Shown: positions 50,696 through 56,549, numbered from the stretch's first letter. The stretch is DNA of 64,000 bases from an uncultured Gemmatimonadaceae bacterium (GCA_963716745.1 OY970320.1:2112001-2176000), one strand, 5' to 3'. Notes: generated by a model from the sequence alone, not told the origin. Numbers and translations: made by a program.

Positions 50696-50956
50696 CTACC
50701 TTGGTATCTTCTCTCCCACCGCCCGCTCGAGATCGCGCACCAGCCCGATGATGCGGCGCATGATGTCGATCATGCGATCCACCGCCGCGCCCTGCTCGGG
50801 ACCCAGTCCCGGCTCGGTGCGCAGTAACTGCGCCTCGGCCAAGAGCGCGGCCAGCGGATTGTTGAGCTGATGCTGCACGAGCGCCGTCAGCCGTTGCAAC
50901 TCAGGCGACGAGAGCGGCTCCTTCCCATCGGACGAGGCTTCTTTGGACGGCGTCAC
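50696..50956 (-). CDS. Stand-alone HisKA/DHp-domain protein (86 aa)
   Basis: RBS AGGAGG plus GTG; H-box VQHQLNNPLAALL; no ATPase domain. Confidence 0.72.
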   Translation of the reverse strand: MTPSKEASSDGKEPLSSPELQRLTALVQHQLNNPLAALLAEAQLLRTEPGLGPEQGAAVDRMIDIMRRIIGLVRDLERAVGEKIPR

Positions 50957-51001
50957 GCGCGGTGCCTCCTCACGGGTCAGTACTATATCTTCAGGACACT
51001 C

Positions 51002-51602
51002 ATGGGTTCCCCGAGGATACCGGGCGGCACGGCCGCCGAGATCGCGCGCGCTGTCGAGAGCTACCGCGAGACGAACGATTTCTCCGTGCTGCTCGACGAA
51101 TTGCTCGCCATCTCCGCGGATGCCGACCTCGACGAACTCATCGCAGCGGTGGAGCCGTATCGCACCATTCCGGAGATCGCGGGCCCCGTGTACGAACGCG
51201 TGGTCGCCGAGCGGCCCAACGATGCGCGCGCGCTCGTGACGCTCGCGAACTCGTACTGGCTGAGCGGCCGCGGCGCGGAGGCGACGGGTGAGCTTGCTGC
51301 GCGCGCGATGGCCGCCGATCCGGAGAATCGTGCCGCGTGGCATTCTGTGGGCCCTCACTGAGCCGGAGCCGCGCGAACGCATGATGCGCTGGAAACAAGT
51401 GACGGAACGATTCCCCACCGACGATCTCGCGCGCGCGACGCTCGCCGATGCCGCCGCGAGCGTCGCCGGCGCCGAGCGCGATCGCGAAGCGCTGCAACTC
51501 GCGATCCGTTCGTACGATCAGCTGCTTCGAACCGCCGGCGCCCCGGAACAGAAGGCGGCCCTTGAGTCGGCACTCACTACTCTGCGGGCGTGGAATCTCT
51601 GA
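51002..51602 (+). CDS. TPR-like hypothetical protein; frameshift about 51345
   Basis: RPNDARALVTLANSYWL...ADPENRAAW; continues in ORF 51288..51602. Confidence 0.7.
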
Positions 51603-52498: not shown

Positions 52499-52611
52499 AA
52501 CTACAGACCTAGACGTTAGACCTAGACGTTAGAAGGCGGACGCTAGACGTGAGATACTAGATGTGTTCGCAGTTGTATTCTAAGTCTAGGTCTAGCGTCT
52601 AGGTCTGCACT
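52499..52611. repeat. Palindromic element (AGACCTAGACGTT variant)
   Basis: AACTACAGACCTAGACGTTAGACCTAGACGTTAGAA...TTCTAAGTCTAGGTCTAGCGTCTAGGTCTGCACT. Confidence 0.85.
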
Positions 52612-53003
52612 TAAGCTCGTGCCCTTCGCAGCGCCATGTCCTCCAGGACACCGAGGAGCGCCGCCAGATCGAACGGCTTCGCGACCAGCACGCACCCGCA
52701 CGCATCGATCAGGTCCATCGCGTGATCGCTCGCGTCGCCCGTCGTGAATACCGTGCGGCCGCGCAATTGGGGTTGCAGGCTCGACGCCAGCTCGAACAGC
52801 ACGTCGCCGCGCATGTCGGGCACCCGCAGGTCCACGACCATGAAATCGAAATGCTCGCTGCGCAGCAGGGAGAGCGCTACCTCGCCGCTCTCGACCGCGC
52901 GCACATCGTACCCGCCGCGCGTGAATGCGATCGTCAGTGCACGGCAGATGGACGGTTCGTCGTCCACCACCAGGATCCGCGCACGCTCATTGTACAGCCT
53001 CAT
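52611..53003 (-). CDS. Single-domain response regulator (receiver)
   Basis: ILVVDDE, VVDLRVPDMRG, TTG, KPF. Confidence 0.9.
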   Translation of the reverse strand: MRLYNERARILVVDDEPSICRALTIAFTRGGYDVRAVESGEVALSLLRSEHFDFMVVDLRVPDMRGDVLFELASSLQPQLRGRTVFTTGDASDHAMDLIDACGCVLVAKPFDLAALLGVLEDMALRRARA

Positions 53004-53787
53004 CGTCCTTCGCTCCGTGACGGCGCATCATCGCCGTTAGCACTTCCATGAACCGATCGGGCGGCAACCGCTCCCGAAGGGTCGACGGGGAGTGGCCCGT
53101 CGTCGCCCGCACTTGCCGCGAGAACACGCGCGGCGAGGCATACCCCAACTTCCTCGTGATGTCTTCCAGCAGGAACCCTTTCTCGCCCAGGTAGTGGTAC
53201 GCCTGCGCCAGCCGAGCGGTGAAGATCAATACTCTCGCGGATGCGAGTTCCTGCTTCACCAGCCACCGGTCGAGATTCCGGCGCGTCATGCCCGCCGCGT
53301 GGGCGAGCGATTCGACGCCTTCGATCAGGTGCGGCGATTCGTACATGCGCATGAGCGCCCGTTGCAGCAGCGGCATCGCGCCTTCCAGCCGGTCCATGAT
53401 CGACTCGAGCGCTTCGCCACCCAGCCTTCGCGCGGGCAAACGCTCGAGCAGATCCTTCAATCGCCGCGGTTCATCATCGAATCCACGGAGCACCACGTGA
53501 CGCACGCCGCGCTGCGCGAGTGTCACGGTCGTCCGCAGCGTTTCCGCCGCGAGCGACGTGTAGACCACCACCGGCAACGTCGGATATCGCTCCATCAACT
53601 CGTACAGCGGCTCGATCTCCGTGCTGCCATCGACCCGAGGGTCGACGACGAGCACATCCACCGGCGACCGTCGCACGAGAGTGATGAGCTCGGTCCAACC
53701 GATGACACCGGTCAGACCATGCTCATCGCCCAGCACGCGGCGGAGATAGACGAGGACGGGAGGAGAGAGGCGGGCGGCGACTTCCAC
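52987..53787 (-). CDS. AraC-family regulator with N-terminal receiver-like domain
   Basis: VDVLVVDP...PVVVYT; C-terminal double HTH LAHAAGMTRRNLDR / LGYASPRVFSRQVRATTGHSPS. Confidence 0.88.
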   Translation of the reverse strand: MEVAARLSPPVLVYLRRVLGDEHGLTGVIGWTELITLVRRSPVDVLVVDPRVDGSTEIEPLYELMERYPTLPVVVYTSLAAETLRTTVTLAQRGVRHVVLRGFDDEPRRLKDLLERLPARRLGGEALESIMDRLEGAMPLLQRALMRMYESPHLIEGVESLAHAAGMTRRNLDRWLVKQELASARVLIFTARLAQAYHYLGEKGFLLEDITRKLGYASPRVFSRQVRATTGHSPSTLRERLPPDRFMEVLTAMMRRHGAKDDEAVQ

Positions 53788-53803
53788 GGGGGGACACTAA
53801 GGT

Positions 53804-53874
53804 TGTCCTAAAAAGGCACCTTACTGTCCGAAAATGCGTGTTTGCCCCGCCGAATGCCACGGTACCTTGCGCTC
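53804..53874 (+). promoter_or_regulatory. Putative activator-dependent promoter of the peptide gene
   Basis: TGTCCTAAAA (53804) and TGTCCGAAAA (53825) are 21 bp apart; TACCTTGCGCTC at 53863. Confidence 0.6.
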
Positions 53875-53912
53875 GAGTGGAATTCCGGTCCCAACCCTCG
53901 CGCGAGGCTATC

Positions 53913-54047
53913 ATGATCCGTCGCCTGTTCGCCCTTCTCGTTCTCGTCGCCGTCGCGTCCACCGCTTCGGCCTGCACTTCACCCACCGCGCCCCACGCGG
54001 ACTGTGCCGTGACGGGCGGAAGTGGGAACTGCTCGGTCAGTCGCTGA
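53913..54047 (+). CDS. 44-aa secreted lipopeptide precursor
   Basis: RBS GAGG; MIRRLFALLVLVAVASTASA|CTSPTAPHADCAVTGGSGNCSVSR; followed by a hairpin. Confidence 0.72.
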   Translation: MIRRLFALLVLVAVASTASACTSPTAPHADCAVTGGSGNCSVSR

Positions 54048-54068
54048 CCCTCACTCCATAGCACGACT

Positions 54069-54102
54069 CGAAGGGCCGCGGGTGCCAACCCGCGGCCCTT
54101 CG
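54069..54102. terminator. Hairpin between convergent peptide and TPR genes
   Basis: CGAAGGGCCGCGGGT-GCCA-ACCCGCGGCCCTTCG, a perfect 15-bp stem. Confidence 0.75.
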
Positions 54103-54110
54103 TGCATCGC

Positions 54111-55355
54111 TCACGCTCTGATCCCGGCCAGTTCCCTCAGTTTCTGGACGCCGGCCGCCGCTTCCTCCACCATCGCCGACGCGGGCGCCGGCACCGGCGC
54201 GCTGATCGGCACGCCGTCCTTCAAGTCCCCCAGCGCCTGCTCGGCGTGGAAGACGATCTGATTCAAGTGATGCTGCTGCGCGATCTCAAGCGCGCGCTCG
54301 AACGCCACGCGCGCTTGCTCCGGGCGGTCGAACATGCGGCAGCCCTGGCCCGCGTAGAAGAAATACCACGCTGAGAGCACCGGCGGCATCGGCGCGGTTG
54401 ACAGTTCACGGCGATACTGCTCGAAAACGGGCTCGAAGCGATCCGCGGCCGCGAGCTCCATGAGATTGATCGTCGCCTGCCATCGCGTGAATTGCTCCTG
54501 CGCCGTGGCCGCGAGCACGAGATTCGCATCGCGCGCCGCCGTGCGCAGTCCGATCTCGAAGAAGCTTGCCGCGAGGTCGGCCAGCACGCGGTCGCGTGAC
54601 GCGTCGCTGCGCACATCCTGCAGCGCCATGTATTGCATCGCGATCGCGGCGTCGTAGTCGCCGCGACGGTGCGCGGTGTGCGCGCGGTCCTGCAGCGCCA
54701 TCGCGCGAATCTCCATCATCCCGAGTTGCTCGGCGTCGAGGATCGTCTGGTCGAGGATCGACTCAGCCTCGGGGAGGTTGCCGCGGTCGGTGAGCACGTT
54801 CGCTTCGCCCATGCGCGCCTTGAGCATGCTCATGATGTCGCCGGTGAGCGCCGCCACTTCGCCGGCGCTGCCGTAGGCGGCCCACGCGTCGTCCCACCGC
54901 GCGAGCGTGCGCGAGCACGCGGCGATCATGAGATTCGCGTGGATCACTGAGTCGGCGTCGTTGAGCGGATGCGCGTGCGCGAGCACCGTGCGGTAGACAT
55001 CCGCGGCGAGCGCCCATTCGCCGTCCAGCTGCAGCGCGCGCGCGTACGCCATGAGGCGCGGCGTGACGATGCGCACGCTCGCGAACGCGCCGTCGGGATC
55101 CATCGCCTCGAGCACCTTGGCGAGCAGCGCGCGCCCGGTGGTGCCGGGCTCCATGGCGTCGACGGCCTCGCGTACCGCGCGCATGCCCCATGCGTCGGCC
55201 GCCGCGACGTCGGGCCCTTCCATCACCCAGGCATCGACGAGACGCAGCGTGACGAGTCCCGCGCTCACGGCGCGGAACGATGGGCTGCCCTCCTCGAGTT
55301 CGGCGAGGCGCTCGAAGTAGGGGAGATGAGAGAGCGGGATCCCGGAACGATTCAT
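54111..55355 (-). CDS. Cytoplasmic tetratricopeptide-repeat protein
   Basis: Helical repeats (GEWALAADVY, RGNLPEAESIL, RGDYDAAIA, RVAFERALEIA); no signal peptide or HTH seen; start at 55355 inferred. Confidence 0.8.
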   Translation of the reverse strand: MNRSGIPLSHLPYFERLAELEEGSPSFRAVSAGLVTLRLVDAWVMEGPDVAAADAWGMRAVREAVDAMEPGTTGRALLAKVLEAMDPDGAFASVRIVTPRLMAYARALQLDGEWALAADVYRTVLAHAHPLNDADSVIHANLMIAACSRTLARWDDAWAAYGSAGEVAALTGDIMSMLKARMGEANVLTDRGNLPEAESILDQTILDAEQLGMMEIRAMALQDRAHTAHRRGDYDAAIAMQYMALQDVRSDASRDRVLADLAASFFEIGLRTAARDANLVLAATAQEQFTRWQATINLMELAAADRFEPVFEQYRRELSTAPMPPVLSAWYFFYAGQGCRMFDRPEQARVAFERALEIAQQHHLNQIVFHAEQALGDLKDGVPISAPVPAPASAMVEEAAAGVQKLRELAGIRA

Positions 55356-55356
55356 G

Positions 55357-55428
55357 GAGCGCAAGCTTGGCACGGGCGACATCGCCATCAAGCTCGAATC
55401 AGGACATCCGGGGGACGAATTAGGACAT
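55357..55428 (-). promoter_or_regulatory. Putative activator-dependent promoter of the TPR gene
   Basis: Minus strand ATGTCCTAATTCG and ATGTCCTGATTCG are 21 bp apart; AAGCTTGCGCTC directly precedes C-ATG. Confidence 0.6.
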
Positions 55429-55431
55429 TTT

Positions 55432-55539
55432 AACTACGCGGGAAGCGGGAAGAGGGAAGCGCCGCGATGAGCGAGAACGAACGTCAACCCCACGCATCCC
55501 GCGCTCTCATCGCGGCGCTTCCCGCTTCCCGCTTCCCGC
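55432..55539. repeat. Heptamer-arm palindromic element (GCGGGAA family)
   Basis: AACTACGCGGGAAGCGGGAAGAGGGAAGCGCCGCGATGAG...CTCATCGCGGCGC(TTCCCGC)3. Confidence 0.9.
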
Positions 55540-56448
55540 ACTCACGTAGCGATCGCCTTTCTTATCCAGCTTGATCGATCTCCTTCTCAAGTTCATTCGC
55601 CCACACTTCCACGCGCGTGATGGAGTGCGGATCCCATTTCGGATCGAAGGGCGAGCTTGCGCGGGGCCACCGGCGACTTCGAGCACGGCGGCATAGTCGT
55701 ACGCGAGCACCTTGCCCGTCTTCGGGTTCTTCCATTCGCCCTTCCAGGCGAGCGACCGGTTCTTGGGCCAGGAGCCGAGGGGCAGGCAGAAGGTGAGCAC
55801 CTTGTTTCCAGGCACGGCCGAATCGATCGCGAGCTGGCCGCGCGCGATCTGCTCCTGCACCACCGCGTCGGAATATTTCCCGAGCTGCGCGTGCCAGAGG
55901 GTGTGATTGCACAACTCGAATCCGTGGTCGTACAGCCAACGCACCTTCTTGAATCGCCACGATGACTTCTGTCCTTCGACGCCGGTGTAGCCGAAGAAAT
56001 TGTGGCCGGCGTTCGCGCCGCTCAGCAGGCAGAAGGTGGCCTTGTTCCCCCAGTCAGGATGCGTCTTCTGGAACTCGATCCAGATGCCGATGGCGCTGGT
56101 GGAATCGATGACGAGCTCGCCATTGCGCTCGATGTACCGGAACTGCGATGGCGATGCATCGTCGAACGTGAAGACGACGGGCGAGAGTCCCGCCGGGAGG
56201 TCGATCTTCTTCGCGAGCAGGTCGGAGACGTTCACCGGCCGATACCCGCGATCGTACATGAACTGGAGATCGCGCTTGAAATGTTCGCGCGACACGGTGA
56301 ATCGGGCTTCGTAGGTGCCGATAACGTGGTACTCGAGGATCGGGATTCTTCCCATCTCATTCGGCGGGAGCTTCTGAACGGCGGGCTGTCGGCTGTCGGC
56401 TGTCGCGAGCACTACTACCAACGCTGCAGCAATGGACTTCCAGATCAC
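55507..56448 (-). CDS. Secreted polysaccharide deacetylase (CE4); compensating frameshifts near the C-terminus
   Basis: PILEYH, VFTFDD, NHTLWH; GTG start at 56448 inferred. Confidence 0.85.
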   Translation of the reverse strand: MIWKSIAAALVVVLATADSRQPAVQKLPPNEMGRIPILEYHVIGTYEARFTVSREHFKRDLQFMYDRGYRPVNVSDLLAKKIDLPAGLSPVVFTFDDASPSQFRYIERNGELVIDSTSAIGIWIEFQKTHPDWGNKATFCLLSGANAGHNFFGYTGVEGQKSSWRFKKVRWLYDHGFELCNHTLWHAQLGKYSDAVVQEQIARGQLAIDSAVPGNKVLTFCLPLGSWPKNRSLAWKGEWKNPKTGKVLAYDYAAVLEVAGGPAQARPSIRNGIRTPSRAWKCGRMNLRRRSIKLDKKGDRYVSAGSGKREAPR

Positions 56449-56549
56449 GTTCGGCTCCGAAATGAGATGAGGGCAGGGAATGTTCCCCGCCCTCAAATCT
56501 AAGCCGTTCGCCCGCGACAGCCGACAGCCGACAGTCCGCCGTTAGCAGT
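56377..56549. repeat. GCTGTCG-family inverted arms enclosing the deacetylase start
   Basis: AACGGCGGGCTGTCGGCTGTCGGCTGTCGCG pairs with CGCGACAGCCGACAGCCGACAGTCCGCCGTT. Confidence 0.85.

Follow-up and report, generated by a model that had tools for sequence, protein, structure and literature searches.

Genetically encoded peptide signals that are read by cytoplasmic receptors built of tetratricopeptide repeats (TPRs) are generally attributed to Firmicutes and their mobile elements. In these and related systems, Rap proteins act as gates on Spo0F and ComA, and InvF and MxiE have TPR chaperones as co-activators. Enterococcal pheromones derive from lipoprotein precursors, the peptide and receptor genes of prgQ/prgX are convergently transcribed, and response regulators of the YesN type, which join a receiver to an AraC module, are a known kind. 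A large survey of RRNPP quorum-sensing systems, which screened only Firmicutes and viruses, gives their signature as a small propeptide (10–100 amino acids) with a Sec tag, directly neighbouring the gene of a receptor of 250–500 amino acids that carries TPRs; a tag of the Sec/signal peptidase II (SPII) kind is admitted only at a 'relaxed' level (Bernard et al. 2023, PMC10075063). Here we describe a locus from an uncultured Gemmatimonadaceae bacterium (GCA_963716745.1 OY970320.1:2112001-2176000; this whole stretch of 64,000 nucleotides is called the window, and positions are counted from its first letter), in which a very small open reading frame (ORF) for a lipopeptide precursor lies between the gene of an all-TPR protein and that of an AraC-type regulator, itself followed by a single-domain receiver.

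The receiver, AraC and TPR genes are on the minus strand, and the lipopeptide ORF is on the plus strand in the gap between the TPR and AraC genes. Read along the minus strand, the order is thus a polysaccharide deacetylase gene, the gene of the TPR protein (414 residues), the lipopeptide gene (44 residues) convergent with it, the gene of the AraC protein, divergent from the lipopeptide gene, and that of the single receiver (Table 1). The explanation that we favour, with about even confidence, is that this is a dedicated regulatory cassette, so far found only in Gemmatimonadota, in which the AraC protein drives transcription of the lipopeptide gene, with the TPR protein and the receiver as its gate. 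The gene for the tiny exported lipopeptide appears to be the one recognizable transcriptional target of the cassette.

The arrangement was followed in 20 loci around TPR homologues of relatives (first batch) and in 60 loci from across the phylum (second batch). These come from about 54 related genomes, with protein identities down to about 25–30%, and the counts are not independent trials. In the first batch, a lipobox ORF lies between the TPR and AraC genes in 18/18 loci, or 19/19 when L025, from the unpublished genome G012, is included. In the second, all 45 TPR genes that have an AraC gene 150–900 bp downstream have a small lipobox ORF between the two (42 were recognized by the automatic filter and 3, at L069, L073 and L075, by inspection). 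This ORF is always divergent from the AraC gene and convergent on the TPR gene, as in the window. The identical filter applied as a control to the TPR strand of the intervals returned 0/60, and no such ORF is carried by 10 of the 13 TPR genes that lack a downstream AraC gene. A convergent small lipoprotein gene is still present at L043 and L044 (family f4), where the AraC gene lies upstream, and at L048 (f5), where there is only a receiver; at L049 and L050 the TPR gene is followed at 52 bp by the AraC gene, and a peptide ORF is lacking. The receiver gene follows the AraC gene in 17/20 first-batch loci and in most of the primary copies of the second batch. The arrangement is conserved far beyond chance, and the linkage spans two families of the order plus some more distant lineages. 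The initial annotation had tied its proposal to just such a linkage, of TPR homologues to a lipobox ORF of fewer than 70 residues and to this AraC gene, and it is borne out, usually with the receiver as an additional member. One locus, L097 (G104:C96:27593-37055), has the order AraC, TPR, TPR, peptide, AraC, receiver; its first TPR copy directly follows an AraC gene and has no peptide gene of its own, and L043 and L044 share this order of AraC then TPR.

A profile built from 30 TPR homologues (match at E ≤ 1e-10) matched in 143 of the 301 sampled genomes of the phylum, including 52/69 in family f1 and 73/125 in family f2, with few or weak matches elsewhere; the tallies include the unpublished G012, G086, G204 and G125. 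When 8000 candidates were scored, 999 TPR homologues were obtained at E ≤ 0.001, and the named top ones are from Gemmatimonadaceae or Gemmatimonadota. Plasmid and phage collections yielded no TPR homologue, and thus no sign of mobility. A limited literature search (Gemmatimonadota, Gram-negative RRNPP, Gemmatimonas peptide quorum sensing) found no published account of such a cassette.

The link between the AraC protein and the lipopeptide gene comes from the intergenic region that separates them. We scored the best 14-mer self-match at spacings of 12–32 bp in the AraC–peptide intergenic regions of 63 loci, and 21 bp was the best spacing in 38.2 of the 63, with 4.6 for the runner-up. The repeats take a different form in each lineage (TGTCC, TGGCAC, TGTCGC, TGCCGC or ATAGGAAA), each followed by an A-tract, and paralogous cassettes of one genome carry different repeats (L063–L066). 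From the proximal A-tract to the ATG there is a median of 85 nucleotides (nt; interquartile range 82–91). The motif TAnnnT lies 31–33 nt after this A-tract in 19/39 loci, any other offset occurring at most once, and family f2 shows CAnnTTG at the equivalent place by inspection. A scan of 53700–54200 for sigma-70 promoters returned 0 sites. If the TAnnnT element is the −10 element, the proximal repeat would cover the −35 region, over which AraC/XylS-type activators usually sit. At up to two mismatches, the 3.29-Mb genome contains a single tandem site, with 0 matches at nine other spacings, and the exact half-site has three occurrences in the window's genome. Because the tandem site is unique there, the regulator looks dedicated to this one promoter pair, and we infer from the promoter architecture that the AraC protein acts on the peptide gene, which the initial annotation had not proposed. 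Genomes G154 (L103:2443-2473) and G075 (L104:2480-2510) have one further tandem site each, with 1 mismatch, that of G075 lying 31–61 nt upstream of a gene for a secreted protein of 297 residues. We considered these second sites as regulon members and set them aside as unconvincing, beside unrelated genes as they are.

The product of the small ORF has the build of a lipoprotein. In its precursor, a basic n-region is followed by a hydrophobic core and, at residues 18–21, by A-S-A-C; residues 1–20 form the signal peptide, and the predicted mature peptide of the window, C21–R44, has the head C-T-S-P-T-A-P and a loop from C31 to C40. This 24-residue product is identical to the one that the initial annotation had written out. 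A20 and C21 are nearly invariant among 44 sequences, and the n-region, h-region and lipobox are present in 63/63 loci, as judged with a custom pattern and by eye. In 18 of the 19 first-batch genes, GAGG or GGAG stands no more than 14 nt from the start; L036 has only AAGGGA (this Shine–Dalgarno count was read by eye, with L025 left out). For lipidation, the genome encodes one copy of Lgt (2.1e-40) and two of Lsp. A signal peptide, a lipobox with an invariant Cys and the enzymes of the pathway, as expected of a bacterial lipoprotein, are thus all present, and the peptide is very probably lipidated and exported. Pfam has no family for the window peptide, and none is matched by more than 2 of the 44 homologues at E ≤ 1; in particular, the colicin lysis (Lysis_col) and entericidin families match 0/44 peptides at that threshold. 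Look-alikes of the peptide in the ESM Atlas all fall below the level of 0.9 that counts (tiny lipoproteins 0.82–0.84; likeness to colicin lysis proteins and entericidins 0.82). Likeness to other tiny lipoproteins is only a lead towards an effector role.

Across 63 peptides the mature part is 18–39 residues long (median 24) and divides into a conserved head and a diverging tail. The head reads C-x(1-5)-T/S-A/G-P in 56/63. We also considered C-x-x-P-T-A-P as a general lipoprotein trait of the organism and rejected this, since it is found in just 1 of the 73 large predicted lipoproteins; as the sequences stand, the head motif is a trait of this family and not a general sorting motif. Further Cys residues number zero in 24 peptides and two in 39, never one or three. 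On a FastTree phylogeny of 62 TPR proteins, there were 9 or more changes of Cys state, of which 7 or more are forced by well-supported branches, and shuffled labels need 19.3 changes on average. Cys residues are thus gained and lost in pairs, as expected for a disulfide loop formed outside the cytoplasm. Tandem units make up two of the tails: one (L045:2673-2822) has a 7-residue unit in three copies and the other (L046:4226-4360) a 6-residue unit in two. Four contig sets from soil or rhizosphere covered the locus only in fragments. A soil-metagenome contig (run X4, record 20) matches the flanks of 53957–54067 at 85% or more and has the tail and spacer replaced by 110 unlike letters. Because this contig matches on both sides yet differs over the tail and spacer, the peptide tail is a local hot spot of divergence.

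The AraC protein is more than the plain activator of the initial annotation: the gene was rightly recognized, and its product has an N-terminal domain with a receiver fold of its own. The helix-turn-helix (HTH) part matches HTH_18 with 48 bits against a cut-off of 33.6, and it contains the double HTH that defines AraC/XylS proteins, with helices at 139–254 in the model. The Response_reg match of the protein is only 0.0017, below the cut-off. In the AlphaFold2 model (predicted local distance difference test, pLDDT, 88.4), however, the N-terminal domain is a (beta-alpha)5 fold, which Foldseek superposes on the receivers HupR (2.6 Å over 116 columns) and Spo0F (2.6 Å over 117 columns). Among 17 homologues, D49-P50 and Y76 of this domain are invariant, but the pocket lacks an acidic pair at beta1 and a conserved Lys. 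Because the pocket is incomplete, with only D49 kept, we file the modelled domain as an atypical or pseudo-receiver. The separate single receiver has a complete pocket, with D14, D15, D58 and K109 found in all 12 homologues and T88 in 90% of them or more; going by these residues it should be phosphorylatable.

The AlphaFold2 model of the TPR protein (pLDDT 92.5, predicted TM-score 0.84) has 21 helices. About 90 helical residues precede the TPRs at the N terminus, and the start, H-x-P-F-F-E, is strongly conserved. The sequence has no N-terminal hydrophobic segment or export signal, Pfam finds no HTH in it, and an NCBIfam search gave nothing specific. The initial annotation had pointed to RRNPP structures for comparison, and these are found by Foldseek among other TPR proteins: LGN/Pins comes at the top (E about 5e-7), and RapJ, NprR, a phage Rap and RapH–Spo0F appear at ranks 30–49. 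A profile search of the PDB gave LGN at 1e-12 and no RRNPP receptor (no Rap) among the best 60. Neither the PDB profile nor Foldseek/VIA gave an RRNPP-specific signal above generic TPR matches. In a complex prediction of the AraC protein, the receiver and the TPR protein, the TPR protein scored 0.77; a control in which the AraC protein was replaced gave 0.73, so the score is not specific to the AraC protein.

Duplicated cassettes indicate which genes belong together. Several genomes hold 2–6 TPR matches, and in G112, G300, G298 and G241 the extra copies consist of TPR, peptide and AraC genes with different peptides and repeats, the receiver standing beside one copy only per genome. In the TPR tree, the paralogue lineages are older than the genera. 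The unit that needs to stay matched is TPR–peptide–AraC, and the receiver looks like a shared input. Because the TPR, peptide and AraC genes are copied together, this argues that the TPR protein recognizes something specific to its cassette: the AraC protein, the peptide or both.

Within the window, gene calls and Pfam place the four genes exactly where the initial annotation had put them (Table 1). The receiver gene and the end of the AraC gene overlap by 17 nt. The start of the TPR gene is most likely at 55355, because the homologues are 413–415 residues long; the length of about 414 residues given earlier agrees with this. The hairpin that had been described as common to both convergent genes is there with a perfect stem; its RNA folds at −37.8 kcal/mol (minimum free energy; z = −5.1), and 0/200 shuffles fold equally well. 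A stem of at least 8 bp is found between the stops in 28/63 loci, and the hairpin is thus not a conserved feature; a scan of 53700–54200 for intrinsic terminators returned 0 sites. Between the stops of the peptide and TPR genes the median distance is 34 nt, with a value of −4 in eight loci, and the stop codons overlap in many loci. We infer that the two transcripts often overlap, leaving room for antisense effects.

Table 1 Features of the cassette and its surroundings, in window coordinates
Feature	Position	Strand	Evidence or remark
Single-domain receiver, 130 aa	52611-53003	-	Pfam Response_reg 1.5e-15
AraC/XylS-type HTH regulator, 266 aa	52987-53787	-	HTH_18 1.5e-12
Direct-repeat pair TGTCCTAAAAAGGCAC / TGTCCGAAAATGCGTG, putative AraC operator	53804-53840	+	Starts 21 bp apart
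-10-like element TACCTT	53863-53868	+	Family pattern TAnnTT / CAnnTTG
Shine-Dalgarno GAGG	53904-53907	+	5 nt ahead of ATG
Lipopeptide precursor, 44 aa	53913-54047	+	Signal peptide and lipobox; predicted mature part C21-R44
Hairpin between convergent stop codons	54069-54102		Perfect 15-bp stem; likely two-way terminator; lineage-specific
Cytoplasmic all-TPR protein, 414 aa	54111-55355	-	TPR_12 2e-10; ORF open to 55391
Exported polysaccharide deacetylase	55507-56496	-	Polysacc_deac_1 9.5e-11; upstream of TPR gene, same strand

The palindromic elements that had been read as borders of the block are present (52499–52612 and 55438–55539), and they do not delimit it. Because their cores recur in the 3.29-Mb genome, the 16-nt AGACCTAGACGTTAGA 27 times and the 15-nt GCGGGAAGCGGGAAG 100 times, they belong to genome-wide repeat families and are ordinary dispersed repeats, not module limits. 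The surroundings of the cassette vary with the family. A deacetylase gene stands beside the TPR gene at L010 and in 9/19 first-batch loci (tblastn), and also at L092, in f1 only; it is not present at the f2 loci L060, L084, L087 and L089. Five annotated f2 loci have, upstream of the TPR gene, a regulator with a receiver and an HD_5 domain in three cases, an HD domain only in one (L089) and neither in L083; receiver and HD_5 (HD-GYP-type) were both seen in L060 and L084, and the ORF at L087 showed only the receiver part. After the receiver, these f2 loci have a MerR-like gene in 3/5 (L060, L087 and L089) and a LemA gene in 5/5. A gene with Peptidase_S13 (PBP4) and LysM adjoins the cassette at L046:5604-7196, in a genome of family f7.

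On the receiver side of the cassette, a TPR_19-like gene at 50870–51602 (plus strand) is broken over two frames (50870–51361 and 51288–51602); it is a single continuous frame in L021, L101 and others, and the window thus has a frameshift or an assembly indel. A mini-ORF at about 50696–50980 (minus strand) holds only an H-box like that of the HisKA dimerization and histidine-phosphotransfer (DHp) domain (Pfam HisKA 1.7e-9; match in ORF 50696–51418). We considered this match as a wrong-frame artefact and dropped that explanation, since the mini-ORF is conserved: tblastn finds it in 15 fetched loci, 14 of them f1 cassette loci and the other, weakly, L053 (G142, f2). In f1 loci it lies about 1–2 kb from the receiver, mostly beside the TPR_19-like gene, and outside f1 it is not part of the cassette. 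By analogy, a DHp-only protein near a single receiver could be a candidate Spo0B-like phosphotransferase.

In the mechanism that we propose, the AraC protein would bind both repeats, activate the peptide promoter from over the −35 region and affect its own divergent promoter; that it activates the peptide gene is, in our judgement, highly likely. The single receiver, translationally coupled to the AraC gene, would supply the input, a phosphorylation signal that originates with an unlinked kinase. The TPR solenoid would be the cassette-specific partner that gates the AraC–receiver pair in the cytoplasm, and it probably binds the AraC protein, the receiver or both. Lgt and Lsp would lipidate and cleave the peptide, and its two Cys residues, when present, would close a disulfide loop. 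The lipopeptide would then be the circuit's output, at work in the envelope or extracellularly, either as a self-signal or as an envelope-active effector. If it is sensed, its signal would return through the receiver, not by entering the TPR groove; feedback of the peptide on its own cassette by any route is something we expect with slightly less than even confidence.

Several observations weigh against this explanation. The fetched loci are kin, and their counts overstate independence. A spacing of 21 bp is not the best one in 25/63 loci, and the −10-like motif departs from the sigma-70 consensus and keeps its fixed offset in just 19/39. With its invariant Asp, the receiver-like domain of the AraC protein may itself be phosphorylated. 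The receiver is missing beside secondary copies and in some genomes, and no histidine kinase is conserved in the cassette. Within the window's genus, changes in the peptide are few and mostly non-synonymous (0.3 synonymous and 2.7 non-synonymous changes in the mature part between the window and L021). Moreover, the co-duplication of TPR and peptide genes fits direct recognition of the peptide equally well.

That last point leads to the circuit put forward in the initial annotation, an RRNPP-like one in a diderm lineage. Applied to this cassette, it would be RRNPP-type quorum sensing with a split receptor: the exported precursor is cut after its head and the variable tail is re-imported into the TPR groove, a course of events that we consider unlikely. 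The tail-bound TPR protein would then release or activate the AraC protein, the receiver or both, and the AraC protein would induce the peptide gene in an autoinduction loop, which seems to us just as doubtful. Part of what had been proposed nevertheless holds. All five computational traits of the signature, as PMC10075063 describes them, are found here: the precursor has 44 residues, a Sec/SPII-type tag is present in 63/63 (custom pattern and eye; admissible at the 'relaxed' level), the receptor has 414 residues with a TPR_12 match at 2e-10 and an all-helical model, and the peptide and TPR genes are adjacent in 63/63. A conserved head (56/63) with a diverging tail is the pattern of a processing part and a variable message, the tandem tails of L045 and L046 are expected if short C-terminal units are released, TPR, peptide and AraC genes are duplicated with different peptides, and the regulator has no evident target other than the peptide gene. 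Other observations speak against this reading. A predicted lipid anchor and, in a diderm, the outer membrane would separate the peptide from a receptor in the cytoplasm; the cassette has no permease or protease gene, and the only SBP_bac_5 (OppA/DppA-type) locus of the genome, G000:C1:2692530-2693232, has two in-frame stops. The tails, of 10–30 residues and often disulfide-looped, differ from the linear RRNPP peptides of 5–10 residues; the TPR protein has no HTH; and in the window's genus the peptides differ little while TPR identity drops from 97 to 69%, with no pherotype-like switching.

A different coupling between the same proteins is secretion-coupled control, which we rate as quite improbable. 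Here the TPR protein would be both the chaperone of the pre-lipopeptide and a co-activator of the AraC protein, and efficient export would free it and raise transcription, a logic known from type III secretion in IpgC–MxiE and SicA–InvF. The adjacency of TPR and AraC-family genes in 63/63 loci, the lack of the usual ligand-binding domain in the AraC protein and the joint duplication of TPR, peptide and AraC genes all suit it, and a wholly cytoplasmic interaction removes the problem of topology. However, what is conserved is the mature head and a tail motif, the signal peptide being kept only in general character; known TPR chaperones have about 160 residues against 414 here, and the phosphorylatable receiver is left without a role. 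The most sceptical account, in which the small ORF is non-functional and only the intergenic promoter and terminator region is conserved, is close to refuted. High-GC genomes are rich in spurious ORFs, 132 nt are too few for GC at the third codon position to be decisive, and a loose lipobox pattern gave 802 matches in the genome, was useless and was replaced by a strict one. With the strict pattern, however, the whole genome yields 9 ORFs of fewer than 80 residues, among which the window peptide is, on reading, the one clear tiny lipoprotein. A start, a Shine–Dalgarno sequence, n- and h-regions, a lipobox Cys and a short tail are kept in 63/63 despite precursor identities to the window that fall to 25–50%, the TPR-strand control is empty (0/60) and extra Cys residues are always paired. 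The ratio of non-synonymous to synonymous change (pN/pS) of the mature part is about 0.1–0.3 in three more diverged ungapped pairs; it is near 0.9 for L022/L024, where the numbers are small. Judged on these sequence comparisons, the small ORF is a real gene.

On the reading that we prefer, in which the AraC protein drives the lipopeptide as an output gated by the TPR protein and the receiver, the cassette shows in clean form an AraC regulator that has a single target and is paired with a TPR protein and a receiver. Whether the peptide is a signal or an effector, the cassette would assign a role to about 1000 proteins now labelled 'hypothetical' or 'TPR repeat protein', and it adds an unannotated small gene to Gemmatimonadota genomes. 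Roughly half of the genomes sampled from a soil phylum carry a cassette with the formal RRNPP signature. If the peptide is an effector, it represents a new family of tightly regulated lipopeptides of 20–40 residues; if it is a signal, peptide communication in diderms becomes open to direct test through a defined four-gene unit. The RRNPP reading, if true, would be the more important result. It is improbable that this is the first pheromone system of the RRNPP kind in a diderm phylum, with a short, often disulfide-looped pheromone as the only product of its precursor. The further features of such a system (a receptor divided between the TPR protein and the receiver-like AraC protein, a Spo0F-like receiver and several insulated channels per genome) are no easier to credit.

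Of the described systems, Rap–Phr of Bacillus is alike in having an all-TPR cytoplasmic protein of about 380–420 residues beside a small gene for a Sec-exported propeptide, in having a single receiver and a response-regulator-type transcription factor as likely targets (Spo0F and ComA in Bacillus), and in cassettes duplicated with diverged peptides. By contrast, the present host is a diderm, the precursor has a lipobox (SPII) instead of a signal peptidase I site, the tails are longer and often looped, and the peptide gene is convergent with the TPR gene and not co-transcribed downstream of it; the transcription factor is of the AraC type with a degenerate receiver, and no sequence-level relation was found. 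PlcR–PapR, NprR–NprX and PrgX–PrgQ likewise combine a TPR sensor, a DNA-binding function and a neighbouring propeptide gene, with autoinduction of the peptide gene. Their receptors have a fused HTH, whereas here the HTH, of the AraC/XylS type, and the TPRs are on separate proteins. An enterococcal pheromone comes from the signal peptide of a normal-sized lipoprotein; in our family the mature peptide is conserved, and the precursor encodes nothing else.

The pairs IpgC–MxiE and SicA–InvF share with the cassette an AraC activator without a classical ligand domain, a TPR protein as potential co-activator and an exported product. Their TPR proteins have about 160 residues compared with 414 here, the cassette has no secretion-system genes, its exported product is a lipopeptide of 24 residues, and a phosphorylatable receiver is part of the unit. 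YesN-type regulators have the same layout as our AraC protein, a receiver fold N-terminal to two AraC-type HTH motifs; here the acidic pair and the Lys are missing, a separate canonical receiver is encoded just downstream, and there is no adjacent cognate kinase. Colicin lysis proteins, entericidins and DUF4223 resemble the lipopeptide in having lipobox precursors of 40–55 residues with mature parts of 20–35 residues rich in G, S and T. None matches the 44 peptides in Pfam at E ≤ 1, the genetic context differs from that of colicin lysis proteins in that there is no colicin operon, and the lipopeptide family described here has a head motif and a paired-Cys loop of its own. As with these tiny lipoproteins, tight and dedicated regulation would suit a membrane-active product.

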